Shown here one piece after another: positions 8,617-63,100 of a stretch of 64,000 bases of DNA. The position numbers and the translations under genes are program-made. A model generated the notes under the pieces. The model was not told the origin of the DNA and did no database searches. It saw nothing but the letters and a program-made list of their open reading frames with translations. The DNA comes from Geosiphon pyriformis uo1. Taxonomy: Eukaryota > Fungi > Glomeromycota. The stretch is from NCBI GenBank assembly GCA_016748015.1, contig JAAOMT010000439.1:331527-395526 (forward strand), written 5' to 3'. Every line of letters starts with the position of its first letter. The stretch's first letter is position 1.

Positions 8617-9394
8617 TGTTGCTTTGTCTGGTCTGAGTGGCTAGTCACATGTAGAAAGTGCATGAGTCATGTTTAGTTTGAGTCTCTTAGTTTGGCTCTA
8701 TGTACTAAATAGCAATTGGGCTACACTCGTTAAATGTGTTAATAAAAAAAATAAATAAAAACTTTTAAATATTAGTATTATTATAAATATTAAAACTTAA
8801 ATTATTTAATAGCTAATTATAAACTTATTTTTTTGTTATGTTTAAGTTTTTATTTAAATTTTTTTATTATATTTTAACAAAATATAATCTAATTACCAAC
8901 TATTATATAAAATTTAAAGATTATATAATTAATTATAACTTATGTATTTTTTATATATAATTAGTTACTCTTTTAATTTTTGATATATCAAAATTTTAAT
9001 ATATTATTTATTAATTTTAGTGTTTTATGCTAAAAATTATTGTTTTTTTAAAATTACACAATTTTAATTTTTTAATGTTTTTAATGTTTTTGTTAATAAA
9101 GTATATAAGTTTAAATTAAATTTATTAAAATTAAAATTGCAAAATTTGTCTTATTTAATAGAATTTATAATTAAAAAAATTGGATTTTGGTAATTTAAAA
9201 ATAAATGTTGCTATAAATATTAAAACATATTTTACTTTAAATCAATTAGATTTTTAAGATAATAGTTAAAAATAGATGTAAAGTTTATTAAATATTTGTG
9301 GTTTTAAAAGTGACTAAGAGACGAAAAAAGCTTGATTTTGATTTATTTAATACATATATGTATATATTTAATTTTGTTTTTAATTAATTATTTA

Positions 9395-21120: not shown

Positions 21121-21667
21121 TACATTTTGCGAAAATGCTTTTTAGTTTACATTAATCCTATTCATTTCGGAGAGTCCACTAAGCAAGATAGTGGATTGAG
21201 TAATTAAATTCGATTCGAATTGAGTTATATGCTTTCAAATCATAATAACAATAACAATTAATAATAATAAAAAATTAAATTTAATTACAATTAGATTTCT
21301 ATAAAAGAATACAATTAGAACATACAAATTATGTTCTATTTTAGAAATATTCTATTATAGAGTTTTATAATTATTATCAAATAAACTATATTTATTTATT
21401 AAATTAATTAATTATTATTATTATATTATTAAAATATTGATTAATTTTTATCTGTTTTTTAAAATATTTATTTATTTTTTTATATTCATATAATTTTTTT
21501 TTAAGTAAATTTTGGTTTTCTATACTAAAATTTTTTTTTTTATTATGCAATTAACAAGTGAAGCCCAACTGCTATCTAGTATATAGAACCAAACTAAGAG
21601 GCTCAAACTAAACACAGCTTATGCACTTTCTACATATGACTAACCATTAGGGCCAGACAAGACAACA

Positions 21668-28218: not shown

Positions 28219-28685
28219 AATGAAAGGATTATTTAAAAAAATGTTGAAAGATTTGACAAGAAAAAACAGAAAACTTCTTTTTCAGAAATGCACCTTTTTT
28301 GAGAATTTTGGAGGTAAGAGAGAAAGAAGTTTTTTTATTTTTATAATAAAATTTTTTTTGCTAATTGCTTTTTAAATTTAATTGTTTTTTTTTAATTCTT
28401 TATATGTTTTTGTAATTATAATTAAAACAAGTAAAAATTTTTCTAATTTTTTTTTTAAGTTATTAATTGTATTGGTTTTAATTTAAAATTATATTTATAA
28501 TTTTATTATTATTAAAAAATATTTCAGTTGTTAATAATTTATTAATTATTATAATATAATTTTTAAAATTTTTGATAAATTGTTAAATATATTTATAGTA
28601 ATTAATGGTTTAATTTCTTAAATTTTTAATTTTTAATTATAGAAAAAAATATATGTTTTTTGTTAATAGTTTTGAATTATAACAA

Positions 28686-30229: not shown

Positions 30230-31608
30230 TTTTACATGTTTGGTTCAATAATTATGATTGATTCTAAATCTTGTAAAATCTTATCTGGTTTGACTAGTAT
30301 TTCTTGTACTCCTAATTGTAGAATATTACTAGTGGATGATATTGTTGTATTGTGGTATGGCTTCAGTTGATCTTTATGTGCTGCTTTGGTTAAGAATTTG
30401 TTGTTCAATCTTAATTTATAAGCTCCATTTCCAAGAATTTTTTTTATGTGAAATAGTTCATCCCATTTGGGGTCAAATTTTCCACTCCATTGTTTTTCTG
30501 CTTTGGTATAATATAAAAGTACTTTGTCTTCAATCTTAAATTCAACTAGTTTCTCTAATAGTTGGTTATTGTGTCTTTTTTTTTGTTTTTTCTGTAACTT
30601 TTATATATTATCAGCTACTCTTTGCCTTTTGTTTTCTAGTGTTTCCTTTAAGGCATATGTTTTTCTTAACAATGTTCTTTGGAAATTTTCTTCTGTTATT
30701 GGTTCTGTTGGATATGTTTGTACTTTTATCTCCACTGGTAGTGTTGCTGTTTTACCATATACTAATTCAAATGGTATTGTTTGTGTAGTATCTTGCTTCA
30801 TTGTCCAATAAACAAATAAAACTGATAGTATGAACAGATTCTATTTATCTTGATTTTCTTGACTGATTTTGGCAATTGCTTTACATAATGTTCTATTGAA
30901 TCTTTCAACTAATCCATTGGTTTATAGATGATATGGTGATAACAATGATCTTTTAATTCCAAATCTTTGACTTAATTCTTCTAATGTTCTATTTACAAAG
31001 TGAGTTCCTTGATCCAATAGCAATTTTTTTAAACATTTGTGTTAACAAATCAAGTCTTAATAAACGAATTCAACAATGGATTCTGCATTTGCTCTTTGAA
31101 TGGCTTTTGCTTTTGGCCATTTTGTGAGATAATTCATGATTACTGCAATATATTTGTTGCCTTTGTTGGTGATTGTTAATGGTCTGACTAAGTCAATTCC
31201 AATGTGATTGAATGGTTGTTTCACTTTGATTGGTCTCAGTAGTTCACTGAGTTTTGTTCCTCCTTTTTTCTGACAAGCATCACAATTTTGAACATATTAA
31301 ATAATGTTTGGATATATTAATAGCCAATAATATCTTTTTCTGGTTCTTTCTATTGTTGCTTCTTTATGAAAATGTCCTGCTGTTGGATCTGAGTGCATAT
31401 TAAATAATATTGTCTCTTTTTTTGGTTCTGTAATTACTCTGGTTGATTGGTCTGAATTCTTTTTGTTCTTCTGATAAAGTATATTTTGGTGATTGATAAA
31501 ATATTTTGATTGTTGTTTTATGTTATTTTGTTTTTTTTGAAATAATTTTTCCTTGAAAAATTGAGTATTTATATAATATTGGAGTTGTTGGTATTTTTGT
31601 ATATTCAT
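30230..31608 (-). pseudogene. Element A integrase (separate ORF), disrupted
   Basis: MNIQKYQQLQYYI..., HHCC domain (MHSDPTAGHF...YYW...C..C), then rve core and PFELVYG. The 3' end is approximate. Confidence 0.85.
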
Positions 31609-31673
31609 CTTTTGTTATATTTTTGGGTTGAAATTTTTTTAAATTTGTCTCATTTATGACAAACTGTTGGCAT

Positions 31674-32276
31674 TGTTACAGTTTAAAAATTTAGCAAAAA
31701 GAATCATAAAAATAATACAAACTATTCAATCATAATATAGCACAGTAATAATCTTAGAAAGGTAATGATTAACATAGTAGCAAACACCATCTCGCGATAG
31801 TGGCAAGCACCAGTTCACAATAGCAGCCAACACCAACTGGTGATAGCAGCAAACACCAGGTTGAAATATCAAAAANNNNNNNNNNNNNNNNNNNNNNNNN
31901 NNNNNNNNNNNNNNNNNNNNNNNNNNNNNNNNNNNNNNNAATTGATAAAAGCTTTATTGTGAGAATTAGAAAAGCACTAAAGACTATTAACATTCTGTGT
32001 TTCTAGATTAGAGAAACACATCAGGCAATTGCAAGAATAGCCTTAGAGAAGACCCCAAACAGTGGGTAGATTTCAATTCAGCCTCTGAGAAGAAGTACAT
32101 AAATACACACAACAATCAAGAATTAAAGAATAACTTACATCACAACAGTAAAAAGAAAGCCTTCAGTGTAACAGTGACATTATCACACAAATAGAATTGA
32201 GGAATTCATGAAAGACTGATTGCAATTAAAGTGGGATATCTGCAATTAAATATAACAAGAAAACTATTCTGTAACA
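31674..32276 (+). repeat. 5' LTR of element B (contains an undersized N gap)
   Basis: Near-identical to 39930-40796. The 64 Ns stand in for about 330 bp present in the 3' LTR. Confidence 0.93.
31876..31939. other. Assembly gap (N run)
   Basis: 64 Ns. Confidence 1.
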
Positions 32277-32296
32277 TTTGGTGAACCCTATGAAGA
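32277..32296 (+). promoter_or_regulatory. Primer-binding site of element B
   Basis: ttTGGTGAACCCTATGAAGA directly after the LTR end. TGG is complementary to tRNA CCA. The cognate tRNA was not identified. Confidence 0.75.
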
Positions 32297-35200
32297 AAGA
32301 AAATCAAAAAGGAAATAATAATTAGCAATAATTCATTGCTAAAAAGGAAAAGACAAAAGTGGCGACAAAAACCCCTAATCTTACTGTTCTTGAATTCTGC
32401 CATGCTATTTACACACAAAATCAAAGTGATCTTGAATTACCAGAAGGGTGTTGTCCAGCAGAATCTGCCCTCACTTATTATATTAACGCCAGAATAAATT
32501 ATTATATAGAAAAGGAAGAAGAACCACATGATGCAAAACTTGGATTGTATAGAGAATTATCACAATACACTACAAAAGAAGTAGCAGTAATAGCCGCAAC
32601 TATTGTCAAAATCCATCGAGAAATTGAGCAATACGCCAACGAAAATTTTCCAATATTCACAGGAAACACTAAGGAACGCACCAACAAAACCAAAAAAAAT
32701 TTAGAAACTAATCAGGAAAGTAACCAGCAAAAACTAGGAACACCAGCTCAAACGCCAAAGAAAACTGTCACTCAATCAATAAAGAAACAACGTATTTATT
32801 CACCAGAAGATAAATCATACCATTTTTCACCAGAAAATAAGATACAAATTCCATTAGGAGCTGTATTATCATCAACATCAACTCCACAAATGCCAAGAAC
32901 TCCTAGTTATATTGATAAAATTAAACAACGTAACTGGGGAGACATACCAATTACAGGAAGATATTCATCACTATTCCAAAACCCTCTTTTTCAGCCAAAA
33001 TTTAGAACGGGGTTTGAAAACCGTGAAGAGGAGTTTGAATCAGAATCCAAAAAAGAGACCAGTGAAAAAACAATCACAAGACCAGTCACTGGAACAAGCA
33101 GCCAGTCCAGAAACCAAAAAACTCGTGATCAAGAGGAAGAACCAGATATAAGGGAAGCCACCTTTAGGAATGCTCAAGAAAATATCATCCCATCTCCTCT
33201 TAGACCAATAAACTCACCAGCAGAAAATGGCAACAAAATGACCACACCATACATTGCAAGACTAACAGATTTCTCAGAAGAGGAAGAAGAAACGGACGTG
33301 CACACATGGCTCAGAGAAGCACAAAAAGCCATCCAGGCAAATAACTGGAATGACCAAAGAGCAATTTAAACATTACTTTTCTTCCTGAAAGGCACAGCCG
33401 ACTCGTGGTATCAAAGCCTGAAAACAAAACCCACGAGCTTCGCCAAATTTAAAAATGCACTTCTGGAGTATTTTAGCGACTCAAACACCATAATCCAACT
33501 ACAGAACGAATTCAATACTATCAAGCAAAATACCGGTGAAACTGTCACCCAATATCTTGCTCGATTCAATCAAATTCGCCATCAGATTGAAGCGATTGAA
33601 CAAGGATACTACACTGATTCTCAGGTTTTAAATCAGTTTATTAGAGGATTAAAAAGCAGCATTTTAGGAAGAGTACGCCCTGCCCATTTTAATTCCTTAC
33701 CAAAAGCCATTACACTTGTCAGAGTCCTTAAATCGGCTGAAAAAGAAGCTAACCATAGTCAAATGGTTAACATAGTAATGGAGGAAAATAAGACAGAAAC
33801 ATTAGAGAAAAGAGTAACGTAATTAGGGGAGGAACTCTCTAAGAAAATAGAAAGTTACCTCATCCTGGATCTGAGAAAAAATACATACCAACCACTTCAA
33901 AAATGCAGCCAGGAAGTCAGCGACAGTCGAAATAATTGCTCATTGTGCCAGGAATTCAGAACAGAAACACGCGCCTGCCATTTTTGCAAATGTGTAGGAC
34001 ATTTGATTAGTCAATATCAAACGTGAATGATGCAAGAAGCACGTGAAAATAATTACTACGCGCCACCCCAAATACCCAGAAACCAGTACACGCCAATACC
34101 ACACCAATATCCCACCACATATCAAAATCATGGAGCTTACCAGCAACAGCCCATGATAGCCAATCCGAATTGGCGTCCTGAGGCCCGAAATCAGCCCATG
34201 TGAAACCAGAACGCGTTGGTCCAGAGGAATCCAAACTGCGCCAGAACCAATCAGCAAACCAATCCAAACTACCAAAATTATCAACAAACTTACCTTAATA
34301 TACCAGAAAACCTAATCATCAGAAACAATGATGATAGAAACATAAACAGAACCAAGAATTCCTCCAAATTGAGCCAGACAATACCACCAGCAGTTGCCAC
34401 CAAAGATAGCAGCCTCGCAGCTATTTTTCCTTTTGAATTAGAGGAAAACGAGGCTATGTTCAGTGGAGCAGTATTGGACAAAAAACGCCCAATCACTACT
34501 ATGTATACGGAAATCACTGTAAACAATACCCCAATCAAACTTATCTTAGACAGCAGATCCGCTGGAAGCATCGTAACGCTTCAACTAGTAAACCAACTGG
34601 GTTTCAAAGTTGATCGTGCCACGACATCCCAAATCATAACAGCCGATAGAAGTACAAAGCTGCCTCATGGCGAAATTGACTCATTCCCTTTCGAAATTAA
34701 TGGCATAGTAATACCTACAAAAGTATTAGTAATGGATGCTACACAATATTAAGCATTAGTAGGAAATGACTGGCTAACAAAAGCCAATGCCACTTTAGAC
34801 TGGACCACCCAAGAGCTTCTGATCAATTATAATGACCACCAAGCCAAAATTCCAGCCACCTGTGGCCACTTCCAAAAACCCAGTGCCAACCAAAGACCTA
34901 CCTTCAAATTTGAGGAAAATCCAGCATTACCAGCCATCAAAACCTATCAGCTCTCTTGGGCTGATGACTAAAGAACAGGACTACCAGCCGTACCAACGTG
35001 GACCAGCGAAGAAAGATCTGAATAGAACCAAGTAAGTTTACAAAGAAACCACCAGCGATGCAGACCAAAGCTAGAATGCTCAGTTTGCAAGAAGAAACTC
35101 TTGTCTATGACTGCATGCAGCGCACCGGACGAAGACCCAAGAAATCCCACCCACTACTATTGTAACCATTGTAACAAAGAAAAATACGGTTACCCAGAAA

Positions 35201-38067
35201 GACACAGAAAATGGGACAAGGAACCATGCCTTGCTTGTGGAGAACCATTACCAAGAGGGTGCGACTGGAACGACTTACCAGGCAGAGGAGGAACATGTGA
35301 CGCAATTTGCCAATACACAATCCTCATCTGTGACTGGGTAAGAGGAGGAACGCCGTTCGAAGCAGTGTTCAACAGAGCGTTAAAAAAACTACAGCACTAC
35401 CCACATGACGAGAACAAGTTGTACAACACCACACAAGCCAAAGTAAGAGAAGGAACCACCAAAGAAATATGACATTGGAAAGAGTCAGCCAAAGTAGCCG
35501 ACGAAGTCGCCAACTACAACATGTTTGACCCAGTGGACAAATTTCAGGACTACTACCAACAACTATGCCTCACTCGACAAGAGCAAGAACAATACCTCAC
35601 CCAAATCAACACTTACCTCTGTGAAAACTGTCTCATCCCGTGCCAAAATCAGTGTTGTGAAGAGTATCAAGATGAAAGAGACTTAAAAAGAAAAATGGAA
35701 ATTGAGAATCAGCAGTCTCAAAATCAATCAATAAATCAACAAGACTCACCTGATGGTCCTGAGTCAGAAAAATTTGTAGCCTATACTGACCTAGAACAGG
35801 TGACCAACATCCGATACTTTGACAATGGGCACTTAGGAATAATACCCGAAAGAGCCCATCTAACTAATGCCGGATTCGATCTACGTTATCCAGAAGACCA
35901 ATCCACAACATTACCACTCAGGAGCATCACCAAAATTGACCTAAAAATAGCAGTTGAAATTTTACCAGGAATAATGGTTCAAATGGTGTCATGATCAAGC
36001 TTTGCGAAAAAAGGAATAAGCGTTCAAGGAGGAGTAATTGACTCTGGATACACTGGAAATTTGATGGTTTTGCTATAAAACAATTCAGAAAAACCTTATA
36101 CCATTGAATCTAAGGAAAAGATTGCACAAGCAATTTTCCTACCATTGGTAAAAATTGGGAAATTTGTGCCAGTGGAAAATCGTGAGGAATTGTCACAAAC
36201 AACGAGAAGAACTTTTGGTTTCAGATTGACAGGAAAAGGAATTGAAGCGAATTTCGCTGAAACAATAGAGGAAAAAGGTGAAGTAATTAAAAATGAGTGG
36301 TCCATCACGCTCCTACTATATGGAAAATCAGAAATAAGAATAAAAAGGACAATTAAAGAAAAAGACCTAATATTTGAGCCCTATCCAGAAACTTGCCAAC
36401 AGTTTCTCATAGGACTTACTAACCTTTTTATTCCAGCTAATAAAGCTCAGTGGATAAAAATTCCTATCGCAAACACCACAGAAGAACCCATCTACATTCT
36501 GGAAGATACCATCATTGGATACCTCAGAACGGAGCTAGAAAATGCGTCAACACTACAAGAAATTCTAAATTTCCCAGAAATCGCCCTCTACTGTGAACTC
36601 ACTTCAATAAATTGGCAACAACCGTTAGAATGCTATCAATTTACACCAGAAGAATTGGCCAAATTAAACATTGGAACAATGGATCCTGACCAACAGCGAC
36701 AATTAAAAGCATTAATTTTAAAATACTCTGATATATTTTCAAAAAATGGCGAATTTGGAAGAACCAACTTGGTTCAACACCAAATCCCCACTGGAAACGC
36801 CAGACCTGAAAAACAATGCACTTACCGTGTCCCACCAATGGAACATAATTTTATCAGAGAAGAAGTCCAAAGCATGTTGAAAAAAGGAATAATACAACCA
36901 TCAATGAGTCCATGGTTCTCACCAGTTGTTTTAGTAAGGAAAAAGAACGGAAAAATTAGATTTTGCGTCGACTATCGCAAACTAAACAGCAAAACAACCA
37001 AAGATTCATACCCAATACTGTTAATTGACGAAATCTTCGACGTTTTTGGAGGAGCAAAATGGTTTTCTATACTGGACTTGACCAGTGGGTACTGGCAAGT
37101 GGAAATGGACCCAAAGGACAGACATAAAACAGCATTCACAACACAAAATAGCAATTATGAGTTCAATGTAATGCCATTTGGATTAACAAACGCTCCTGTG
37201 ACATTCCAAAAACTAATGGACATAATTTACTCCAGAATCCTGTGGCAATCTGTTGTTGTCTACTTGGATGATACAAATGTTTTCTTGTCAAAATTCATGA
37301 ATCATCTCCAACATTTACAACAAGTTTTTGAGAGATTGAGACATGCTGGACTTAAACTAAATCTAGAAAAATGTTTCTTTGGGAAAAATGAGCTAGTATT
37401 TTTAAGACACGTAGTTGGAAAAGATAGAATAAAACCAGATCCATCAAAAATAGACAAAGTGAAAAATTTTCCAGTACCTTGAAACGTTTTAGAAGTTAGA
37501 AGCTTTTTAGGACTCGCATCTTACTACCGCTGCTTTGTAGAAAACTTTTCAAACATTGCCAAACTCCTTAATTACCTACTATCTAAAAATGTGAAGTTTG
37601 AATGGACTGAAGCACAACAAAAAGCTTTTGAGTACCTTAGACAAAAGCTCATTGAATCACCAATAATGATCTATCTGAATTTCAACAAGAAATTCATTTT
37701 GGCCACAGATGCCTCTGGAACTGGACTTGGAGCCATTCTGTCACAAAAAGATGATAATGGAAGAGAACGTGTAATTGCTTATGCCAGCAAAAGTCTCAGT
37801 ATGGCAGAACAAAACTACGCAGCATATGAACTTGAATGCTTAGCAGTAGTCTGGAGTTGTGTTCACTTTGACACATATTTACGGTACCAACCCTTTGAGA
37901 TTACGACAGATCATAGAGGTCTGGTCTGGTTAAATAACAAGAAAGCGCTAAAAGGAAAATATGCCAGATGGTCACAAATGTTAGCACCATACAATTATAT
38001 TATCAAATACAAAGAAGGTACCAAAAATGTTAATGCTGACTGTTTGTTAAGAATGAGACACACATAA
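32290..38067 (+). pseudogene. Element B single-frame polyprotein: N-terminal domain - Gag(CA, CCHC) - protease - Cys-rich domain - dUTPase - RT - RNase H
   Basis: ORF fragments starting at 32359, 34216, 35101, 35521, 36145 and 37591 are all in one frame and are separated only by point stops. CA: W..E......NNW.D...FLKGTADSWY. PR: LILDSRSAGS. RT: RFCVDYRKLN, LDLTSGYWQV, MPFGLTNAP, YLDD. RH: TDASGTGLGA, ELECLAVVW, TDH, NADCL. Confidence 0.93.
35836..36236 (+). other. dUTPase domain within the element B polyprotein
   Basis: All five trimeric dUTPase motifs are recognisable: AGFDL, (R>*)SSFA, GVIDSGYTG, KIAQ and RRTFGFRLTG (from RGxxGFGSTG). Confidence 0.92.
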
Positions 38068-38096
38068 AAATCACCAACCCACCCGCCACAACAACA

Positions 38097-39369
38097 ATGA
38101 ACAACCACCTTTACAAAAACCTCAGCCAATACTTGGAAACACTACAAATAGATGAAGAAATGCCAGTAAAAGAGCTAATTAAGCTCCAAAAATTAGCAAA
38201 ATACTATTTCATCTAAAATCACATACTTTATTACCAGAATCGACAAAATCCAGATAATCCATTAAGAGTTATAACCATGGATGAAAAAGAAACTATTTTA
38301 TTTAACATGCACTCAGATATTCATTCAGGCCACTTTGGAAAAACAGCAACCATTCAACGTGCAACTAGCCATTACTATTGGCCAAAAATGAGTTCAGACA
38401 TAATCCAATACATAAGAAATTGTGACCCATGCCAATAAAGAGGAAGAGCAAAAACAACGGAATTATTAAGACCAATAAAAGTTGAACAGCCATTTGACAG
38501 AATCGGAATTGATTTAGTTGGACCTTTACCAATAACAACAAGAAACAACCGTTATATTGCAGTAGCCATGGACTATCTCACCAAATGGCCAGAAGCTAGA
38601 GCTATTAAAACAGCTGATGCTATTTCCGTAGCTCAATTCGTACATGAAGACTTAATTTGCTGACATGGATGTCCACAAGAATTGTTATCAGATCAAGGCA
38701 CACACTTCGTAAACAGCACCTTAAAAGAACTTAGCCAAAAATTTGGAATCAAGCGACCACTGTTATCACTATACCACCCTCAAACAAATGGATTAGTTGA
38801 AAGATTTAATCGCACATTATGCAAATCACTGGTGAAAATTAGTAACGAACATGAAAAAGAATGGGATTTGTTCATACCAGCAGTACTACTAGTATATAGA
38901 ACAGTAAAACAAGATATTACACAATTCACACCATTTGAACTAGTTTATGGAAGAAAAGCCACATTATCCGTTGAACTTACTATCTCAACTTATCCAAGTG
39001 ACACTATTACGGAAGCAACATTCCAGGAAACACTACTTAGAAGAACATACAAATTAATAGGAACTTTAGAAAACAAAAGAAAAAAAGCAGCACAAAATAT
39101 TGAACAATCACAAGAACAACAAAAAGTGAGACATGATAACCAGTTACCAGATAATATAATTAGCTACAAAATTGGAGATAAAGTATTGTTGCATCGTACA
39201 AAAATGGAAAAACAGTGGAGTAAAAAATTTGATCACAAGTGGAATGGACCATTTTATATTCACAAAATACTTGGAAATGGAGCATACAAGCTAAGACTAG
39301 ATGATAAAATATTAAGAAAAGCAGCACATAGTAACTGGCTGAAATTCTATTACAGTAAACCAGTAATAA
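38097..39369 (+). pseudogene. Element B integrase (own ATG, different frame from RT-RH); runs into an N gap
   Basis: MNNHLYKNLSQYLE..., MHSDIHSGHFG...YYW...CDPCQ, IGIDLVGPLP, DYLTKWPEA, LSDQGTHF, YHPQTNGLVERFNRTL and GPY/F motif WNGPFYI. Confidence 0.92.
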
Positions 39370-39643
39370 NNNNNNNNNNNNNNNNNNNNNNNNNNNNNNN
39401 NNNNNNNNNNNNNNNNNNNNNNNNNNNNNNNNNNNNNNNNNNNNNNNNNNNNNNNNNNNNNNNNNNNNNNNNNNNNNNNNNNNNNNNNNNNNNNNNNNNN
39501 NNNNNNNNNNNNNNNNNNNNNNNNNNNNNNNNNNNNNNNNNNNNNNNNNNNNNNNNNNNNNNNNNNNNNNNNNNNNNNNNNNNNNNNNNNNNNNNNNNNN
39601 NNNNNNNNNNNNNNNNNNNNNNNNNNNNNNNNNNNNNNNNNNN
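39370..39643. other. Assembly gap (N run)
   Basis: 274 Ns hide the integrase end and ORF3 start of element B. Confidence 1.
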
Positions 39644-39916
39644 ACAACTATCCAACTATTAGAACCTTTCATTGGAAAAACCAACACTATATTCCATTCA
39701 AAAACAGTTTACAGAATTTTCAAAGCATTTGAAAACTGTTACAAATTATTGTTGGACCCAACCATAAACATAATAACAACCAACAGTATTACACGTCTTA
39801 CCAACTCGCAATTTCAAGAATTACAACAACAAATTAATAACATAGTATTGAACCACTATAGTAACTTAAAATTTAATGAAGAAATTAACTTCGATTTCGA
39901 CGGAGCTCAATCTTGA
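39644..39916 (+). CDS. Element B ORF3, C-terminal 90 codons (5' part lost in the gap)
   Basis: Open frame TTIQLLEPFIGKTNTIFHSKTVYRIFKAFENCYKLLLDPTINIITTNSITRLTNSQFQELQQQINNIVLNHYSNLKFNEEINFDFDGAQS*. The stop abuts the PPT. Confidence 0.72.
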   Translation, partial: TTIQLLEPFIGKTNTIFHSKTVYRIFKAFENCYKLLLDPTINIITTNSITRLTNSQFQELQQQINNIVLNHYSNLKFNEEINFDFDGAQS

Positions 39917-39929
39917 AAGGAAGGGATAA
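39915..39929 (+). promoter_or_regulatory. Polypurine tract of element B
   Basis: GAAAGGAAGGGATAA immediately before the 3' LTR TGTTACA. Confidence 0.85.
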
Positions 39930-40796
39930 TGTTACAGTTTAAGAATTTAGCAAAAAGAATCATAAAAATAATACAAACTATTCAATCATAATATAGCACA
40001 GTAATAATCTTAGAAAGGTAATGATTAACATAGTAGCAAACACCATCTCGCGATAGTGACAAGTACCAGTTCACAATAGCAGCCAACACCAACTGGTGAT
40101 AGCAGCAAACACCAGGTTGAAATATCAAAAAAAAAGTATTTTCTCGTAGAACTACAAACATGTATATATACAGTAGTTTTAATATTGGGAAATAATCAAT
40201 CAAGTAATAAAAATCATAACTTATCAAGCAACAGATCCAATTTTATCCAACAAACTTCACTTTAAATCATACTTTCAAATTAAATATCCCAAGAAACCTT
40301 TAAAAATCAAAAAGAAATGAAAAAGAATATTTAAAACGGAACTATCACAATCCAAAGTATTAAGAAACTTACTTGTATTATTTATTGAATGAAACTATCA
40401 TTCATCAACTGAATCCCTTGGAAGAATAATCCTTGATCAAGATTATTCACGTTGTTACTAATTAATAAAAGCTTTATTGTGAGAATTAGAAAAACGCTAA
40501 AGACCATTAACATTCTGTGTTTCTAGATTAGAGAAACACATCAGGCAATTGCAAAAATAGCCTTAGAGAAGACCCCAGACAGTGGGTAGATTTCAGTTCA
40601 GCCTCTGAAAAGGAGTACATAAACACACACAACAATCAAGAATTAAAGAATAACTTACATCACAACAGTAAAAAAAAAGCCTTCAGTGTAACAGTGACAT
40701 TATCACACAAATAGAATTGAGGAACTCATGAAAGACTGATTGCAATTAAAGTGGGATATCTGCAATTAAATATAACAAAAAAACCATCCTGTAACA
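39930..40796 (+). repeat. 3' LTR of element B (867 bp)
   Basis: TGTTACA...TGTAACA termini. Direct repeat of 31674-32276. Confidence 0.95.
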
Positions 40797-43700
40797 GCAT
40801 TTTTGTTTTGTTCTCTTTTTTTGTAATGCACTATATAATTAAATAGTGACAGTTCTATTTTCCATTTAACATGACAATTATCTGCAAATTTTTGTTTTTG
40901 AATTGAAATCAATTCTTTATGATCTATGTACACATCAAATTTTTGACTCAAGTATTCTTTTCATTTCATAACTGCTCAATAGATTACTAAGTGTTCTAAT
41001 GCTAGTGTTCCATAGTTCTTTTCTGCTGGACTTAAGCTTCTACTGGCATAAGCTATTGAATGTTTTCTTCTATTTGGTCTTTTCTGTAATAGTACTGCTC
41101 CCAATGCTTGGTCTGATGCATTAGCAGTAATAATAAATAGTTTGCTGTGATTTGGATACATTAATACTAGAGCTTGAATAAACTTTCTTCTCAGTATGTC
41201 GAATGCTTCTTGTTGAGCTTCTGTCTATTTATACTTTATATTCTTAGTTTGTAAATGATGGAATGGCTGAGCCAGTTTAGAAAAATCCTTGATAAAATGA
41301 CAATAATAGTCTGCAAATCCCAAAAATGCTCTTAGTTCTGTCAAATTGGTTGGCACTAGAAAGTTTTTGACTATTGCAATCTTATCCAAATCTGTTTTGA
41401 TACTGTTTTTGCTTACAATATGTCCCAAAAACTTGAGCTCCATTTTGCCAAAGAAGCATTTGTTGGCATTTAGTTTCAATCCTACTTGTCTGAGTCTTTC
41501 AAATACTTGTTGGAAATGATACAGATAATCATCAAATGTTTTTGAGAACATATTGGTGTCATCCAAGTATATGACTACTGATTTCTATAGTAGTCCAATA
41601 TAGACAATTTTCATAAGTCTCTGGAAGATAGTTGGAACATTCATCAAGCCAAATGACATAACTTCAAATTCAAAGTTTTCTTCTCAAGTTGTAAAAGCCG
41701 TTTTCTTTTTGTCTTCTGGTTTTATGGCTACTTACCAGTAACCACTGTCTAAATCTAACATTGAAAACCATTTCTTTCCTTTAAAAACATTGAAAAGTTC
41801 TTGGATCTTTGGAGTTGGGTAGCTGTCTCCTTTTGTTACTTCATTTAGTTTCCAGTAATCTACACAAAAGTGGATTTTTCTATTCTTCTTATGGATTAGT
41901 ACCACTGATGATAACCATGAGCTCATTGATGGCTAAATTAGCCTATTGTCAAGCATCCAGTTGATTTTTTGACAAATGATCTCATGGCTAGCTAGTGGTA
42001 CTCTGTATGCTCTTTGCTTAATTGGCATTACATCTCCAGTTTTTATCTGATATTAAATAATGTCTGTTCTGCCAAATTTGTTTTCACTGAGAAAAATGTC
42101 ATTGAAATTGTTGAGTAACATCTTGAGTTGCATCTGTTGAAGTGAATTTAAGTTTCCTATGTTTATTTATTCTAATTGTTCTAGTTGGAGCAAATAATAT
42201 TTACTTCGTCCATAAATTGTTTGTGATGTGATTTCAACATATCCACAAAGCTATGGAAAGTCTGGAATAGAGTTTGGTGGTTGGTCTTCTACTTCTGTGC
42301 TTAGATATTTGATGATGGTTCCTTCTGGTATTTCTACAATATTTCTTGTGTTGTTATAGATAGGAATTTTGATGTAATTATGGTTCTTGGCAGGTATGTA
42401 GAGATTAATGAGTTCAATCTTTTCTGATTTACAAATAATTAATTTGGCTTCAAAAATCTGTGCTTGATCTTTCACTTTTTTATCTATAGTGTACATATAC
42501 TGATCATATGATAGAATAGAAATTAGTTGATGGATTGAAATAATTTCTTCTTTGTCAACAATTTTTTTTTCTGCCATATTAACTGGTACATCTATTCTAT
42601 TTGTTGATCCAAATTTCTGTATCTTTCTTGCTGTTATCTCTAGTTCTTTCCTATTTTCTACTAACACTAACTGAGTTATTTTCACCAAAGGTAAAAATAT
42701 AGTCTGTGCTATCTTTTCATTTGGCTCTATGATATAGGCCTTTTCCAAATTATTTTGTAGCATTGCAATAATATTTTCTATATATTCTGTGTCAATTATT
42801 CCTCTTCTGATGTTGATTCTTTTTTTTACTAAACTACTCTTAGATACTAGTTAAATCATGATTGTTGCTAAGATTTTTAGTGTGATTTTGAGATCAATAC
42901 AAGTGCATAAATGGGGTTCCAGTTTGATGGTGTCTTTTCTTAGATATCTCAGATCAAACCTTGCATTGGTATTGTGTGCATGTTTTGGCATGATACTTTC
43001 ATTATTATCACTAAACCATTTAAGTTCTTGCTTCTTAAAAAGATCAAGAAGCACAATATATGTTTTGGGGTTTGAATCGAAGTCCAAATTGTTATTAATT
43101 TTGTTATCATATTGAGTAGAACTGAAACCATTGTTTTTGTTATTGTTATTGTCTAAGTTTGAATTGGAATCAAAATCTGATTTTGATTCTGATATGCAGC
43201 TGCTAATTGGTTCTTCCTTTTTTGGAATTATGTAAATCATATGTGTTGGTAGATTGTAAATGAGGTTACACTCATTACAATATTGAAAGTTATATGGAAT
43301 TAAACAATGGTCACATAATCAAGTGTTGATTTTTTCAAAGCATTACTTTTGCTCTTCTCTTGTAGATGTTAGCTTTTAGTAGTGTTTATAGAATTGTTCT
43401 GGATTTAAGAGGTTTATGACTGGTTCTGGGTCCTAGTCGAGTTCTATGGTTTCTGGTAAATTATTTTTGATTGTCCTTATTTCTTTTGGTGACACTTCTT
43501 CGATTTTGGTGAAAGCCATTTGCCAAATTTCATTGTCATTATGTGGACAACCATCCAAGCATTTGACTGCTCATCTTTAGGCAGCATCTATAGACATTCT
43601 TTTTTTTTTCCAGTTACTTATGAGAATCATGTACTAACATAATTTATTGCATGTTCCTCCTCTTCCAAGAATGTTATTCCACATTTCTTCATTGAGAAGA

Positions 43701-46700
43701 GTTTCTCCACAAGTTAAGTATGGCTCATTATCTTATTTTTCTACTTGTTTTGGTCTGCCAAAGTGCTCAACAAGACATGAGCAGCAATAGAACTTAGTTG
43801 CTATCTGGTATTCCTCATTGTTATCACAGCATGCACCCATTGATGATAATTTCTTGTCACAATCAATACACTCTAGTTTTGATCAACAATAATTAAACAA
43901 TTGTGGTTGAGTGTAAATATATAGATGGTAAGTGGTAGTTGGTATTAGATTTTCTTCTTTTTTTTTTTTTTCCTTATAATTGTTTTCTTTCTACTTCCAA
44001 GTTGTTGTCAGTTCATCCTGATTATTGTTGGTTTTCCAGGCTTGGTCAGCATTCCAGGTAAGTTTTTCCCTTTGTTTTTCTTTTCTATTGTCATCCCAAG
44101 AAAGTATTGGTAGTAGCTCATTGTGGTTTTTGTTAGCCCAGAATACTTGATAGGCTTTCCAGGTAGGTTTTTTTTTTTTTTTCTCAAATTTAATAAGTGG
44201 AGCTAATGGTGTAATAATGGATTTGAAGTGTCTACATGTGGCAGGTACCCACATGTATCGACTGTTTTGGCTAAGCTGTAGTTCCTGCATGTTCCAGTCA
44301 AGCATGGCATTTGTTTTAATTAGCCAGTCATTACCAACTAGTGCTTGATACTGTGTAGCCTCCATTACCAAAACTTTGATTGGAGTAATAATACCATTTA
44401 TTTCAATGAAAAAATTATCAATCTTACTAATAGAAGTCTTGGTTGCTCTATCAGCCATTATTATTCTGGCATTAGTAGCATGATCAACTTGGTGACCTAA
44501 TTGGTCCATAAGTTGTTGTGTGATAATGCTGCCTGCTAACCCACTATTAAAAATAAATTTGATAGTATGGCCATCCACTTTGGCATTAGTGTACATGGTG
44601 GTGATTGATTTTTCCTTGAGTGTGGTTCTACTGAATAAAGGAGTTGTTAATGGTTTTTCACTTTCAAAGAAAAATATAACTGCGAGTAACTTGTCTTCCA
44701 TGATGGTAGTTAATGATATGTTGCTGGTAAGTGATTTCTAATTTGTTTTTAAGTTGTTGGATAAGATGTCTTCTGGGATAACTAGGAGACTTAAATAGTT
44801 CTAAGAATTTGGGTTTTGAGTATACCCAGTTCCTAAACTCTACTGTTGTGATCCTGATGACTGGTTGGGTAAACTGGAAATCAGTTGGTAAACAACTATT
44901 GCCAATCTCCAGTTTTGGGTAATTTTTAATCTGGGATTTCTGGATGTCATCTGAGCTGGGTTTAATGGCAGTATTGGAATTGGTGGTTATTGATATATTA
45001 CTTGTGGCTGTGGTTAATAAATAACTGATGCTGCCAGTTAATAAAATGGAGCTTGATATACCAGTGGTTAATAAATTGATGGCTGCATCACTAGTAGATA
45101 ATTCAATTAATATATTTCTGGATTGGGTTGATATCTCAGAGTTTGAAACTAGTGATTGGGTTTTGATATTGATTTCCTGATCATTGGTTTTTTATTCTTA
45201 ATCTGCAATCAATTCTCAAATGTTTTTGTTTATCACAGTAGTGGCAAACACGCATCTTTTGTAGCCACTGTTGATTGGTGAATAATGATGGATGCGATTG
45301 ATTTTGGGAATGATTCACATTTTCTTGATTATTGCGTTGTTGTGGAGATTAATAAACTGCTTAATTGTTAGCTAAATATCCCTCTAATTTTTGGTTGATG
45401 AAATTATTGAATTGTTTCAACTTAGGATCCAATTCAGATGATCTGTTCATTACTAGATAAATAACTTAAGCGTAGTTAGCTTCAAGTTTAACTGCTTCAA
45501 AATCTCTGGCATTTGTAATGGTGGCTTGAAGATCTGCAGAATGCATTGGGCATACATGCTGGAGGATACTACTGTATAGACCTCTAATGAATTGATTTAG
45601 AATTTGTGGTGCTGTAAAATAATCAGTCTGAATTGCCTGAATTTGGTGCAGATTCCTATGGAAGCATCCTAGGTAAGTGGTAACTGCTTCATTTTCTCCT
45701 TGCTTGATAGTGGTAAAGGTGTTTGCTAAACAATTAATACTATTATTGTTACTGAAGTATTGTAAAAATGCAAGCTTGAATGCATTGAAATCCTGAGGTT
45801 TTTTGGCTAGGCTTTGATATCATGAGTCAGCAGTATCTTGGAGAAAATAGGAGATGGCTTGCATGGCTCTGACATCATCCCATCTGTTGGTTGTGATGGC
45901 TTTTTCCATATCATTTAGTCACACTTGGGCATCGTCCTCTTTGCCAGTGAATTTTTCAAGTTTTACAATTGGTGTGTATGCCATTTGTGATTGTTGTGAT
46001 AGTGGTAGTTGAAGTTGTTATTGCAGCTGTTGAGACAGTTGTTGTAGTTGCTGCAGTGGTACTGGCAGCAGTTGGATTTACTGATTCAGTTGTTGTAATG
46101 ACTGACCAATTAGTTCAACTGGTTAATTAATTATGATTTTTGAAAGTATGTGCTATTGATTAATTAAATCGGAATTTTGATTGTTCTGATTTGACAGTGT
46201 TTGAATATTCAGAGTTCCAATTTCTGGATGTTCTAAATTTGGATTTTTCAGAGTTTGAACATTCGGGGTTTCAACTTCCGGGTTTTCTGGGATCAAGTTT
46301 TGGTAAGTAAATTCCTGATCCTCTTCTTCTTCTTCTGATTTTGTTACTTTCACAGATCAAAAATTCCAAAATTGGGTTGAGATGACAGTGATTGATATCT
46401 TGATGGCATTGGTAATTGCAATTTAAATTCTTTAAAATATTTGCTATATGGTCCTAACAATTCTGCTCTTCTTTGTTTGCTTTGGAATGAGAATCATCTA
46501 AAGATTGATGTCATATTTGATGTGAATATGTCTGCTGATGAAATATTGATGGCACTTCCTGGTGTATAATGGTATAATGAATTGGTTGGTGATTCAATTC
46601 TGGTTTTCTTTCAAGTGGGTGGTTGTATTTGTTTTGGTGTTACTGTTGGTGTTTGCAATCTTTCTTTGCCTTTGTCTGCATAAGTGATAGGGAATTGTTG

Positions 46701-49123: not shown

Positions 49124-52100
49124 TGATCTCTTTTTTTTTAATATTAAGTTTTATCAAAATCTTTATTTTGGATTAATTCTGCTACTTTTTTTTTAATACT
49201 ATTTGTTTAACTCTGGTTTTTATATTTTCTACTTGTGAGTTGTTCATTCTTTCTTACTGGTTAATAGTTATTGTTTTTATTTTTGGATGTAGTAATATTT
49301 CTAAATAATTTGAAATATGGTATATAGTTGATAAATTGTTCTAATGTGAAACAATGAGTTTGTTTTCTTTCTGATAAAGTCTTTAATTTGTTGTATTATT
49401 TCTTGATTGAATATTTTTTTGAATTTGTCTGTATATAGTTTTTAAATATTCAGCTTTTGTTCTAACTAATAGTAATAGTATGATATTGGAAATTGTTCTG
49501 TCTATTGTTTCCAACTTTTTTTTGTTAGTTTCTTTGTTAGAATAATTATAAGTATTGTCCCAAAAGTATTCTTCACTTTTTTTATTATTTTATTTGACCA
49601 ATGTTTTGTTGAATTCAGTAGTTATTGATATGGTGTATTTTCTGCTTTTTTTTTTGGTGTTTTGATAGCAGATTGTTTGGTGGTTAATAACAATTTCTAT
49701 ATCTAATTGTTGTTAATTTACAGCTTAAAATAATTGTTGACCTATTGAATAGATGTGATCTGGGATTTCCATTTTTCTGTTGTTGCTTTTATTACATATA
49801 CTGTGTTTTTTTATATTATTTTGGTTAATTACTTTAATTTGGTTGCATTAATAATTATAATTAGTTCCAGATTTCATAGAATTTTATTTGGTTTGACTAA
49901 TATTTTTTGTATTTTTAGTTATGAAATATTATTGGTAAATGATAATACTATATTGTGATATGATTTCAGTTAATCTCCATATACTGTTTTAGCTAAGATT
50001 TTATTGTTCTATCTTAGTTTATAAGCTTTATTTTCTAGAATTTCTTCAATGTAAAATAGTCTGTTCTATTTGAAGTTAAATTTTTTACTCTATTGTTTTT
50101 CTATTTTGGTACAATATAAAAGTACTTTGTCTTCAATTTTGAATTCAACTGGTTTATCTGGTAATTAGTTATTATGTTATTCTTTTTGTTTTTTTTGTGA
50201 TTTTTGAATATTATTAGCTGTTTTTTGTCTTTTGTTTTTTAGAGTTTTTATTAGTTCATATATTCTTCTTAGCAATGTTTTTTGTAAATTGGCTTCTGTT
50301 ATTGGTTCTATTAAATATGTGTTAATGTTTATCTTAATTGGTAATATTGCTGTTCTACTATAAACAAGTTCAAATAGTATTGCTTATATAATATCTTGCT
50401 TCATTGTTTGATAAGCAAATAGTACTGATGGTATAAACAAATTTTATTCATTCTGGTTTTTTTGGCTAATCTTGACTATTGTTTTATACAATGTTCTGTT
50501 AAATCTTTTGACTAAACTATTTGTTTGTGAATAATATGGCAATGATAATAGTCTCTTAATTTCAAATTTTTGACTCAATTCTATTTGTGTTCTGTTTACA
50601 AAGTGAGTTTTTTGATCTGATAATAATTCTTTTGGACATTCATGTTAACAAATCAAATCTTGATAAACAAATTTGGCTACAGATTCTGCATCTGCTCTTT
50701 GAATTGCTTTTGCTTCTGGTTATTTAATAAAATAATTCATGACTACTGCTATATAACAATTGCCTCTGCTGGTTATTGTAAATAATCTAACTAAGTCAAT
50801 TCTAATTTGATCAAATAGTTGTTTCATTCTAATTGGTCTTAGTGGTTCACTGGGTTTTGTTTTTTTTTTCTCTAACAAGCATCACAATTTTAAATGTATT
50901 AGATAATGTTTGGATACATTAATAGTCAATAATATTTTTTTTTAGTTCTTTCTATGGTTGCTTCTTTATGAAAATGTCCTGCTGTTGGATCTAAGTACAT
51001 GTTGTATAGTATTGTTTTTTTCTTTGGTTCTGTAATTACTCTGAATGATTGATCTGAATCTTTTTTGTTTTTCTGATATAGTATATTTTGGTAAATAATA
51101 AAATATTTTAATTGTTGTTTTATGTTGTTTTATTTCTTTTAAGATAATTTTTTCTTAAACTGTTAAGTATTAATATAATGTTGTAGTTGTAGATATTTTT
51201 GTATGTTCATCTTTTGTTATATTTTTGGAATTGAAATGTTCTTAGATTTGTTTTATTTGTGACAAACCATTGGCATTTCTGTTTTCTTTTCTCTTTTTAT
51301 AATGTACTGTATAATTAAATAGTGAAAGTTCTATTTTTTATCTTGTGTGGTGATTATTTCTAAATTTTTGTTTCTGAATTAATGTCAATTCTTTGTGATC
51401 AGTGTATATGTTATACTTTTAATTTAAGTATTTTTTCCATTTAATAACAGCTTAATAGATAGCCAAATGTTTTAATACTAGAGTTTTATAGTTTTTTTCA
51501 GCTGGACTTAAGTTTTGGCTAATATATATTACTAGATGTTTTCTTCTTTCTGGTCTTTTTTGAAACAGTACAGCTCTCAATGCTTGATTTGATGCATTAG
51601 TGGTAATAATAAATGGCTTGCTATGATCCAGATAAATTAGTACTGAAGCTTGAATGAGCTTTTTTCTTAAAATATCAAAAGCTTTTTGTTGAATTTTTAT
51701 CTATTTGTATTTTATATTCTTGGCTTAAAGCTGGTAAAGTAGTTAAGCCAGTTTGAAGAAGTTTTGGATAAATTAGTGGTAGTATCTAGTGAATCCCAAA
51801 AATGTTTTTAATTCTGTGAGATTTGTTGGTATTGAAAAGTTCTTGACAATCTCAATCTTGTTTGAATTGGTTTTGATGCTGTTTTTACTTACATGTTTTA
51901 AAAATTTCAGTTTTTTTTTGTCAAAAAAACACTTGTTTGTATTAGTTTCAATTTGGCTCTTTTTAGTTTCTCAAACACTTGTTAAAGATGGTAAAAATAA
52001 TCATTAAATGTTTTTAAAAACATATTAGTGTTATTCAAGTATACTATTACTAATTTCTATAGTAGTCTAGTATAAACAATTTTCATAAGCTGTTAAAAAG

Positions 52101-60137: not shown

Positions 60138-63100
60138 ATGGTTAGAATAGCATTTGGATAATTTTTGATTCAATATTTATGGAAAATATAGAAAGCATTT
60201 TAAATGTTTTGATCTAGAAAATAATTGTTCATGTTAATTAAAGATATCTTTGTTTTAGGAATGATATATTTATTTATATTTGATTTTTGCTAATTATTTG
60301 AATCAATATTATTATAACAAGTAACTAATCAAATTATTTGTAATATTTTTTGAGTTGTATATCATAAACAGAACAATTATTGAAGATTGTTCTATATTGA
60401 TTTTATAAGATATAAAAATTATTGTTTAAAACTTTGTTAATTATAAAAAGTTTTTTCTACCAGCTAGAGAAATTATTACTATAGACATTGTTTTTGTTTA
60501 AATAATATTCTTAAACTAAGTTATTAATATTTAAGAAAGTGTTTTATAAGTTTTTTTTTCTTAAGCTTCTCTTAAAATTGTTTTATTTTTTTAAAAGCAA
60601 TTATCTGTGTTTTTACCAAAAAGTTAAGAATAGTACCAAGTATTTTTTGTAAAATGTTTTTGTAATTTTCTATTATGATTTCTTTAAAAAGTATTGTTTC
60701 AATATTAATTTTTATTAATAATATTGCTATTTGTCTATAGAACAAATAAAAAAGTTTATAATTTATTATGTTATAATTCACAGTCTTATTAACAAACAGA
60801 GCTAAAAGCAGTACTTTGTTTCATAAGTTTGTTTTTTTATTGGTTTTGGCTAAAATTTTACATAATGTTTTATTAAAATATTCTACTAGGCCATTTGTTT
60901 GAGAGTGGTAAAAAAAAGAAAGTTTATAACATATTTCCATTTTTTTGTAAAGTTTTTCAACCAATGTACTGAGAAAAACTCTTTCTTTGTCAAATAAAAG
61001 TTCTTTGGAGCAGTTATAACAACAAATAATATTTTATAAATAAATTTGACAATAGAAACTGCTATTTAATTTGAGGTGATTTTTGTTTCTATTTACTTTG
61101 TAAAATAATTAGTAGTTGTAATAATATATCTATTGTTATCAGAAATTATTGTTAAAAGTCCAACAATATTTATACCAATTCTGTTAAATGATTAACCAAC
61201 AGAAATTGAATGAATGTTTTCTTTGTAATTGGGTTTTTTTTTTCTTTGGCAAGTATCATAAATTTTAATGTATTCAGCAATGTTTTTCTTTAAGGTAAGC
61301 CAATAATAGTAAACAAAAGTTTTCTGAATTGTTTTTGTTTTTTCAAAGTGTCCAGCTAATAGATTAGTGTACATATTATAAATCATAATTTTTTTTTTAA
61401 ATTTAATAACTCTTTGGGAGCAGTTAAGATTTTTTTTATTTCTTTTGTAAAGTTAATTCTGGTGAATCAAATAGAAATTTAATTATTTGCACAAATATTT
61501 TTTTTATTGTTAAATATAGTTTAGTGAGTATTGTTTTTTACCCAAAAATTCTATAAGGCAGAGTAATTGTCTAAATTCATTATTATGTTTGTTTAAGAAA
61601 AAATTACTAATAATTAGATTGGTTTAATTTAAGAAGGTTGTATTATTACTGAATGATAAGTTTAAAGAATATATTAGTGTTTTGATAATTAGCTCTTTTG
61701 TGATATTGTATATTATAGTTAAATTTATTTAGATAAAATATTCAGTAAGTTATCTATTTATGTTCCAGCTTTTTTTTTGTTATATAACCAAATCAAAGCT
61801 TAATAATCTGTTATCATTAAAGACTTTATACCAAAAAAATATTTATTTTAATAACTAATAAATTATACTATTGCTAAGTATTTCTGTTTAATTACTAAGT
61901 AATTCTGTTCTATTGAAAAAAGAAATCTGTTAAAATAAGCTATAGTATGTTTTTTATTATTTTTATCTTTCTAAAATAGAACAATACCAAGTTTAACGTC
62001 AGATGTATCAATATGGAGAATAAAAAATTGATTCAAATTAGATTGCTAAGAATTAGCTTAGTAATTAGTTTTTTCTTTAGAGTTTCAAAAGCTTTTTGTT
62101 AATATATATTCCAATAATAATTAACAATTTTTTAAATAGCTAATTGAATAAAAAAGTGATTTTAGAAAATTTTTTGACAAATTTGTGATAATAAAATACT
62201 AAACCAAGAAAAAACCATAGTTTATAATTATTTATTGATTGTTTAATATTTTAAATCTTTTTAATTTTGGCTGAATTAGAAAAAATTTTATCTTTTGTAA
62301 TAAGATGTCCAAAAAACTAAATAGATTAATATTCAAAGAAAAATTTGATTAAGTTAATCTTAAAACCAGTATTTCTAAGGAAATCAAAATTTTTTTATAA
62401 ATATTTAAGATATTTATCTTAAGTTTTTAAGTATACCATTATGTCATTTAAATAAATTAAAACAAAGTTTTTTTTACTAATTTAAATACTTTGTCTATTA
62501 GACATTAAAAAGTAGGAGAAGCATTAATAAGACCAAAAGACATAACTGTAAATTTGTAGATGTCATATTTAATAATGAAAACAGTTTTTTTCCTGTTTTT
62601 TGAATTCATTTCTACTTGTTAAAATTTAGTAATTAAATTAATAGTTAAAAAAAAAACAACATTATTGAATTAATTTAGTATTGTATTAATTTTGAGAAGT
62701 AGATATATGTTTTTTTAGTAATAACATTTAATTGACAGTAGTTGACACAAAAGCATAAGGTTTTATTTTTCTTAAATATTACTACAACTGAAAATGCTCA
62801 TTTGTTCTTGGTTTTTTATATGAATTCAAAGTTTTTCATCTGATTTATTTCTTTTTTAATAAACTTATTATTATAATAATTGAATTAATAAAACTTTAAA
62901 TAAATATAACAAGTTTTTTTGGTGGTAATAATGTGTTATATTACATAAATACATCTAGAAGTATCACTTTTTTGATATAATTGAGTTATTTTTAGCCAAT
63001 AAGTTTTCAATATTAATTTTTTTTTCTTTTAGAGAAGATTTTTTTTGTTCTACTATTAATAACTATATTTTTGGTAATTTACTTTCAAAAGACTTTTGTA

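Follow-up and report, generated by a model that had tools for sequence, protein, structure and literature searches.

In Ty3/Gypsy retrotransposons the integrase is normally part of the Pol polyprotein, from which it is released by the protease. In the model elements treated in PMC5371799, it is by being covalently joined to reverse transcriptase (RT) that integrase enters the particle and supports reverse transcription: in Ty3 a capsid-RT-integrase fusion (CA-RT-IN) rescues cDNA synthesis but CA-IN does not, and the integrase of Ty1 alone fails in trans (PMC5371799). This study concerns a 64,000-nt stretch of the genome of Geosiphon pyriformis uo1 (Glomeromycota; assembly GCA_016748015.1, contig JAAOMT010000439.1, positions 331,527 to 395,526, forward strand), here called the window, and in particular one retrotransposon within it, element B, whose integrase lies outside Pol in a reading frame of its own. 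In other respects B resembles Ty3, with long terminal repeats (LTRs) ending in TG...CA, a target-site duplication, a polypurine tract, a Ty3-type capsid, RT and RNase H, the domain order protease-RT-RNase H-integrase (PR-RT-RH-IN, from tblastn), and an integrase with HHCC, DDE and GPY/F (here GPF) motifs. The difference is that the integrase, which in Ty3 is cleaved from Gag3-Pol3, appears here as a separate gene, often followed by a further open reading frame (ORF), ORF4. Because the integrase lies outside the Pol polyprotein, B and its relatives are, on their gene content, a Gypsy-derived variant that would work like Ty3/Gypsy and not a canonical member.

Restart of translation after a stop codon is known from systems that use a TURBS (termination upstream ribosome-binding site), such as those of caliciviruses and the influenza B BM2 gene, and from the fungal hypovirus CHV1, with its UAAUG. 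TURBS restart is described in PMC5972666 as declining with distance, with overlaps of 1-14 nt; among retroelements the same source describes a UAAUG stop-start in SART1, with structured RNA near its restart site, and reinitiation over a 63-nt spacer in LINE-1. According to PMC5902531, caulimovirus ORFs meet in short overlaps or fused stop-start codons or are set apart by short gaps, and reinitiation driven by the protein TAV is independent of distance. A literature search, with most subscription journals and Repbase Reports outside it, gave no description of a Gypsy lineage with a separate integrase ORF, and repeat-library annotations in supplements or Repbase could already record the layout.

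The integrase cistron of element B and its relatives

The gag-pol frame of B (32332..38067, plus strand; 1,911 codons, 11 internal stops, no frameshifts) closes with a TAA at 38065-38067, directly after the RNase H residues ...LRMRHT. A spacer of 29 nt (38068..38096; 13 A, 14 C, 1 G and 1 T), AUG-free and with no predicted fold, precedes the ATG at 38097, which opens the integrase cistron (38097..39369, beginning MNNHLY; three internal stops, no frameshifts). The latter carries the HHCC motif, the D-D-E core and the GPF motif before it enters an N gap at 39370, and the junction is the sole frame change in B. Three other copies, on the minus strand of the window (all coordinates being positions within the 64,000-nt stretch), have a similar arrangement. 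In A (31608..31641) the TAA at 31641-31639 is followed by a 30-nt spacer, in frame and with a second TAA inside it, and by an ATG at 31608; in C (51210..51244) the TAA lies at 51244-51242, the spacer is 31 nt and the ATG is at 51210. These positions agree with those of the first-pass annotation, as does the start of the distant relic F (61580..61648), MNLDNY at 61580. There the spacer is 65 nt and the stop (61648-61646) is simply the first after a heavily decayed RNase H end, so that the true stop is uncertain. The accompanying claim that all three frames are used is weak within the window, where A and C form one subfamily with spacers differing by a single base, and C is frameshifted in both RT and integrase; it finds its support in the relatives considered below.

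Window copies have decayed by transitions and hold many C-to-T stops, and therefore a TAA at this point could be a decayed CAA, the break at the junction then being a product of that change and of indels in dead copies. Better copies would in that case be expected to have CAA and a spacer of 3n; instead, other members of family B have the same stop, again with 29 nt between it and the ATG. In sequencing run X1, which is possibly from the window's own sample and so informs on other family copies and not on an independent genome, the 321 contigs over 37990-38230 (taken at 80% likeness or more) showed no change at 38065-38067 and no indel at a level of 4% or above, while at 37480, where B has a private stop, C accounts for 26,804 of 27,410 units of depth (98%). 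As many as 6,533 contigs of this run cover 36400-39360, and family B is therefore large; at the junction at least eight contigs diverge from the window within the spacer, as expected of related families with other spacers. The fixed junction, together with the split relatives and two intact split elements described next, rules out decay, which we regard as having practically no chance of being correct.

When the B integrase, with X at its three stops, was used in a length-limited search, 2,023 homologous proteins of 233-742 amino acids (aa) were recovered. The best 120 of these measure 392-453 aa, and in 98 of them the start is a Met 67-73 residues before the first zinc-binding His; the other 22 begin at a later Met (17), an earlier Met (2) or Leu (2), or could not be matched to the motif (1). 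All 99 full-length starts have D, N or E as residue 2, and an RNase H tail was present in none of the best 120. Named matches come from Rhizophagus irregularis, R. clarus, Cetraspora pellucida and Entrophospora, all Glomeromycota, and the split-integrase lineage is likely to belong to this phylum. A search among longer proteins gave five, of the best 120, that score near the stand-alone range. Four are eukaryotic gene models without junction residues, and the fifth, the metagenomic P0125, is a continuous RT-RH-IN-ORF4 polyprotein in which ORF4 is joined to the integrase C-terminus. Fused relatives also include P0127 (a gene model), P0128 and P0129, with identities of 36-39%.

At the DNA level, 81 loci were compared, comprising 80 of 569 confirmed metagenome loci, from 10 of 64 parts, and one from a viral collection. 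RNase H could be seen upstream of the integrase in 36 of these, all related soil contigs, and in 30 of the 36 Pol stops and the integrase has its own ATG (two positions were set by hand: the Pol end of L011, by reference to the sister locus L014, and the L033 ATG). Five are fused, with 35-37% identity to the query, and fall outside the window's lineage; the remaining locus, L076, is a frameshifted copy of a fused lineage and was dropped from the counts. Two of the split loci, L008 and L041, are complete: their ORFs are open and their terminal repeats match. Viral contigs yielded one fused outgroup element and eight weak matches. The split relatives and the family-fixed junction make the feature real and wider than the window. 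Judged by these comparisons, including the conserved initiator Met and the start-codon context given below, the integrase is a separate gene in this lineage, as the first-pass annotation had held.

Translation of a separate integrase

The 30 spacers from Pol stop to integrase start measure -11, -11, -8, -8, -4, -1, -1, 2, 24, 27, 30, 39, 62, 62, 63, 64, 74, 75, 76, 89, 93, 156, 158, 159, 163, 239, 278, 365, 521 and 727 nt, and place the integrase in frames 0, 1 and 2 relative to Pol in 9, 8 and 13 cases. Spacer length is labile, ranging from -8 to +365 nt inside one well-supported clade of four (L024, L051, L018, L017), and the sister loci L004 and L052 differ by one base (63 versus 64 nt). 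Programmed frameshifting, or readthrough of the stop, might still yield a fused Pol-integrase at the junction, given that nine of the 30 spacers and that of A are in frame and that readthrough-type contexts occur at other stops of the same elements. Such recoding sits poorly with the use of three frames and with the difference between those sisters, and a readthrough-type context (taken by us to be UGA-CUA or UAG-CAR-YYA, labels for which the literature gave no source passage) is absent from all 30 Pol stops. The context of the integrase ATG, in addition, is that of an initiator: position -3 is A in 36 of 53 cases and position +4 a purine in all 53, the corresponding figures for 296 internal Met codons being 104 and 192. 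Start context, conserved Met, the three frames and the lack of readthrough contexts together point to a separate gene, and leave recoding into a fusion very improbable.

In-frame stops are also found inside gag-PR-RT, at L017:870, L031:374 and 929, L041:3358, and L051:481 and 1585. Five of the six inspected are TGA-CTA or TAG-CAATTA, some of them between protease and RT, and L031 and L051 have two each. From their contexts they are likely to be sites of tandem readthrough, which would be unusual.

The first-pass annotation had offered reinitiation, splicing or a subgenomic RNA as the means of expression. The comparative evidence does not settle the choice, but it favours distance-tolerant reinitiation on the genomic RNA, in which our confidence is slightly better than even. 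On the full-length RNA, ribosomes would terminate on Pol and restart at the next AUG, reaching back by at most 11 nt or forward over AUG-free spacers of up to about 160 nt, with small ORFs relaying them over some of the longer ones. In 11 short spacers three AUGs were found where 7.7 were expected (P 0.04). Restart of this kind would be more like that of caulimoviruses or LINE-1 than a fixed TURBS. As in TURBS systems, stop and start overlap in seven of the 30 (TAATG twice, ATGA once, -8 twice, -11 twice), and one further locus has a 2-nt gap; stop and restart thus lie within about 14 nt at eight junctions only, whereas most spacers are of 24-163 nt, and among the loci no common upstream motif was seen. 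With the Caulimoviridae these elements have in common reverse transcription and consecutive ORFs with short gaps or overlaps; they differ in being LTR elements with an integrase, in fungi, and no TAV-like protein (P6 in cauliflower mosaic virus, CaMV) was identified here, ORF4 having no Pfam or fold match, as judged without direct comparison with TAV. SART1 and LINE-1 likewise would share a retroelement enzyme in a downstream cistron reached by reinitiation and, in SART1, structured RNA near the restart. Their split, however, is between ORF1 and ORF2, whereas here it lies inside the Pol of a capsid-forming element, and the structure described below sits between stop and restart.

Relay ORFs are seen in several elements. 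Among 14 upstream regions that are long or lack Pol, four hold an ORF of at least 40 codons that ends on the integrase start, where 0.15 would be expected (P about 5e-6, by thresholds chosen after the data had been seen); L026 was missed by this test owing to its 400-nt limit. Chains of three or four abutting ORFs occur in L026, L033 and L063, the order in L033 being Pol, an 83-codon ORF, an 85-codon ORF and integrase, with each start near or overlapping the prior stop, and L018 has a 44-codon relay ORF before the integrase. A basic small ORF precedes the integrase in the sister loci L031 (2411-2566) and L033 (1142-1399); the two ORFs are apparently homologous, intact in L033 and frameshifted in L031. 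L026 also has an ORF of 238 aa (521-1237) that shares an ATGA overlap with the integrase start; it encodes a restriction-endonuclease-like domain (Pfam Mrr_cat_2, E 5e-9) and by its domain content is putative cargo inserted into the ORF chain.

Beyond the integrase, ORF4 is a conserved frame of about 145 aa; in 10 loci it opens on the first ATG, with an offset of -8 to +129 nt relative to the integrase stop. Its profile matches 23 loci, 13 of them training sequences, where 41 loci have at least 450 nt after the integrase, and the family has matches in 506 clusters at 50% identity. In B the 3' part of a likely ORF4 is found at 39644..39916, from an alignment, a tblastn match to the post-integrase ORF of L002 (E 1e-4) and a weak profile match (E 0.05); its start falls inside the N gap and its TGA lies at the edge of the purine tract. 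The protein is predicted to be all-helical (predicted local distance difference test score 90). Pfam at curated cut-offs and the ESM Atlas gave no match, nor did Foldseek against PDB and viral libraries at E 0.001, and the best VIA-align Z was 4.9; such blanks are not proof of a new fold. The fusion of ORF4 to integrase in P0125 suggests that ORF4 is a likely integrase partner. With a free integrase gene, relay ORFs and ORF4, these elements have a polycistronic appearance.

It is the ORF chains and the ORF4 spacing that lead us to prefer reinitiation over a subgenomic RNA, which the long spacers had first suggested. A capped RNA of that type would come from an internal promoter in the 3' end of RNase H or the spacer, with the 42-nt structure described below as a regulator in its 5' leader, and we consider it unlikely, though it ranks well above recoding. 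It would account for the range of -8 to +365 nt within one clade and for long spacers that hold AUGs yet, in eight of nine, are AUG-free over the final 60-240 nt before the integrase start, and PMC5902531 places the CaMV 19S promoter in a spacer of 106 bp. Neither stop-start overlaps nor chains of abutting ORFs are predicted by it, and it would need separate promoters for ORF4 and for each small ORF. In the overlap elements, moreover, another ATG lies 7-69 nt upstream of the integrase start, and the RNase H of 26 loci shows no synonymous constraint of the sort that a shared splice, promoter or TURBS-like sequence would leave.

Splicing would provide another route, with a precedent in foamy virus, whose Pol comes from a spliced subgenomic message and is packaged via the genomic RNA (PMC7828637). 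Gene models of Rhizophagus clarus and Cetraspora do join Pol to integrase over the junction, but the introns remove the conserved RNase H tail and these models are probably prediction artefacts. No conserved acceptor AG was found upstream of the integrase start in the loci compared, and six of 30 have no YAG or AAG at all between the last upstream ATG and that of the integrase. A spliced integrase RNA is given little credence.

A 42-nt RNA structure and the case against reinitiation

In one subclade only, a motif of 42 nt (RGUGAAAGC-NNAA-GYG-stem-CANNGYGA-stem-RGCY) ends 3-32 nt before the integrase AUG, and exactly 3 nt before it in nine of 15 loci. Over 12 sequences it has 17 invariant positions, 96.5% of cells pair and seven of 12 pairs change on both sides; none of 500 shuffles was as good, and in slid controls 30-49% pair. 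These same 12 sequences served to derive the structure, and its two pseudoknot pairs are nearly invariant and lie outside the covariation support. A covariance model gave 15 strong matches in 328,678 bases, all at the pre-integrase position (12 are the training sequences and three are nearly identical to that of L014), with a weak variant in L013 and no real match in the window. With matches admitted up to E 5, no Rfam family covered the motif in any of 17 loci. A pattern search gave four viral and at least 120 prokaryotic matches; nine of the 124 checked form the variable stem, and as none of the nine has the 5' GUGA/GUGC part, these were treated as chance. Peptide constraint was rejected as a cause of conservation because insertions and stops break the frame of the motif in L019, L028, L035, L042 and L058. 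In the 60 nt before it no ATG occurs, where 8.8 were expected (12 of 12 loci with enough sequence).

From its position and conservation, the structure is likely to control restart or to dock the integrase. It may alternatively be a minimal entry site for ribosomes at the integrase AUG, independent of Pol translation, or an element that undergoes cleavage or blocks decay and so yields an integrase message. The 17 invariant positions, the covarying stems and the fixed 3-nt distance in nine of 15 loci would suit internal entry; there is no Rfam family match, and a motif limited to one subclade and not found in the window copies cannot be the general mechanism. We hold internal entry to be improbable, on a par with splicing.

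The motif loci with visible Pol (L011, L014 and L019) have a Pol C-terminal extension of about 300 aa after RNase H. In L014 (3494-4438) and L019 (2417-3271) the extensions share a Cys/His-rich segment, 42% identical over 92 aa, that co-occurs with the motif; this segment had no Pfam or usable Atlas match and no similarity to the Cys-rich region of B.

Several points, in addition to the thresholds of the chain test, weigh against reinitiation. After a long ORF, it normally requires a cis element or a transactivator, and neither was identified in these elements; no TAV-like protein is known outside the Caulimoviridae, according to PMC5902531. AUG-free leaders and a good start context fit a subgenomic RNA equally well, and ATGs are also depleted after the integrase stop, if more mildly (47 versus 64 expected), so that part of the AUG avoidance in spacers is background. 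Some long spacers are rich in AUGs (seven in L017, 12 in L041 and three in L072), which simple scanning does not explain; of the nine long spacers between Pol and integrase, seven did not pass the coupled-ORF test, and reinitiation as outlined gives no account of L017, L041 and L072. The hairpin 3 nt before the AUG, predicted at -7 kcal/mol, could hinder scanning. ORF4 went undetected in roughly half of those loci whose 3' sequence was long enough, and in L008 and L029 its position is 1.4-1.8 kb downstream. Finally, the 30 split loci include three near-duplicate pairs.

Packaging, origin and the window copies

On the same evidence as the separate cistron, integrase cannot be packaged via Gag-Pol, as the first-pass annotation had also recognised. 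Integrase made on a genomic RNA may instead be captured in cis, by binding that RNA or RT, a step we infer less surely than the restart. Foamy virus also makes an enzyme apart from Gag and requires RNA-dependent packaging (PMC7828637), and this precedent makes an RNA-tethered route possible; there, by contrast, the Pol precursor retains integrase and is made by splicing, for which no conserved acceptor is seen here. The clean duplication around B shows integrase-type insertion of a split element, possibly with a helper.

Integrase and RT trees, unrooted and without named reference elements, bear on the origin of the split. B and A group with L002 among split elements (support 100/99), while the fused P0125 and P0128 group with the split L008, L009 and L029 (98/90). 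A single clade for all split rows was marginally rejected (p 0.035, under LG+G4 with no mixture model and with groups named after the tree had been seen), and the free tree has four state changes. In the RT tree, from which A was left out, B, most split loci and the fused P0125, P0128, P0129 and P0136 form one group (94), with L064 and L072 elsewhere. By these trees the split or fused state has changed more than once, the direction not being set by an unrooted tree. Ginger1 DNA transposons, which have been proposed as Gypsy-derived (PMC6839031), are similar in having TG...CA ends, a 4-bp duplication and an integrase of Gypsy type that stands alone. Ginger1 elements have terminal inverted repeats and no gag or RT, whereas gag, RT and LTRs are retained in B, L008, L014 and L041. 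Ginger-like proteins (so labelled from an integrase without RT and, in three of them, a protease of Ulp1 type) were placed outside the split lineage by FastTree and inside it by IQ-TREE, and the approximately unbiased test favoured neither placement (p 0.52). A wider scenario, speculative and unlikely as a whole, would make these elements polycistronic LTR retrotransposons with a caulimovirus-like relay of Gag, Pol, integrase, ORF4 and cargo ORFs on one RNA. Restart would be licensed by ORF4, as the first TAV-like transactivator outside the Caulimoviridae, or by the 42-nt element, which would also dock integrase for packaging, and the freed integrase would be a stepping stone to Ginger-type DNA transposons.

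Element B as a whole spans 31674-40796 (plus strand). Its 5' LTR (31674..32276) begins with TGTTACAG, ends with CTGTAACA and contains an N gap (31876-31939); the 3' LTR (39930..40796) directly follows the purine tract (39915-39929), and the GCAT duplication flanks the element (31670-31673 and 40797-40800). The LTRs differ at 18 of 539 compared bases, all transitions. Gag-pol encodes capsid, protease, a Cys-rich region, dUTPase, RT and RNase H; B has Pfam matches to Ty3_capsid, RVT_1 and RT_RNaseH, and its protease and dUTPase were named via Pfam matches of the homologous segments in A, including the protease match there. SH3_Tf2-1 and rve matches in the B integrase are under the curated cut-offs, and its homologues match PF00665 and PF17921. 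The Cys-rich region and dUTPase lie between protease and RT (35000-36300 in B, plus strand), as they do in A and C. B interrupts A in the conserved tail motif of the latter's RNase H, some 30 nt upstream of the A Pol stop, so that on the minus strand the gag to RNase H part of A upstream of the insertion is at 40801..45975 and its integrase (six internal stops, no frameshifts, 57% identity to that of B) at 30340..31608.

Decay of B is nearly all C-to-T and G-to-A. A preprint reports that signatures of repeat-induced point mutation were not detected in Gigaspora margarita, and the mutational process behind this decay therefore deserves attention. Contigs of a second run, X2, skip 37545-37635, 37738-37891 and 37926-38082, the last of which spans the B Pol stop; their CT..AC ends correspond to antisense GT-AG introns. 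This suggests a spliced antisense transcript, at low depth, with one contig each and in a run apparently labelled as DNA. Elsewhere in the window, two decayed copies, 69% identical (1933-8754, plus strand, and 21531-28345, minus strand), probably belong to a non-LTR retrotransposon that encodes an APE-type endonuclease and, at its C-terminus, an RNase H, and an open frame of 646 codons (17638-19578, minus strand) has no Pfam match.

The separate-integrase elements are a new form of Ty3/Gypsy, in which the feature is real and the mechanism inferred. A large lineage has amplified and left clean target-site duplications with no covalent link between RT and integrase, and so needs another delivery route and another control of enzyme ratio. 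Two questions, namely how a eukaryotic ribosome restarts after a very long ORF and how integrase can be supplied apart from Pol, thereby become testable in short cassettes. Two handles have also been gained: a 42-nt structured RNA without an Rfam match, and an unannotated protein family, ORF4, of 506 clusters. The split layout explains the stand-alone 'DDE integrase/transposase' annotations in the genomes of mycorrhizal fungi, where pipelines may be misfiling split integrases as DNA transposons or stitching them to Pol with false introns.

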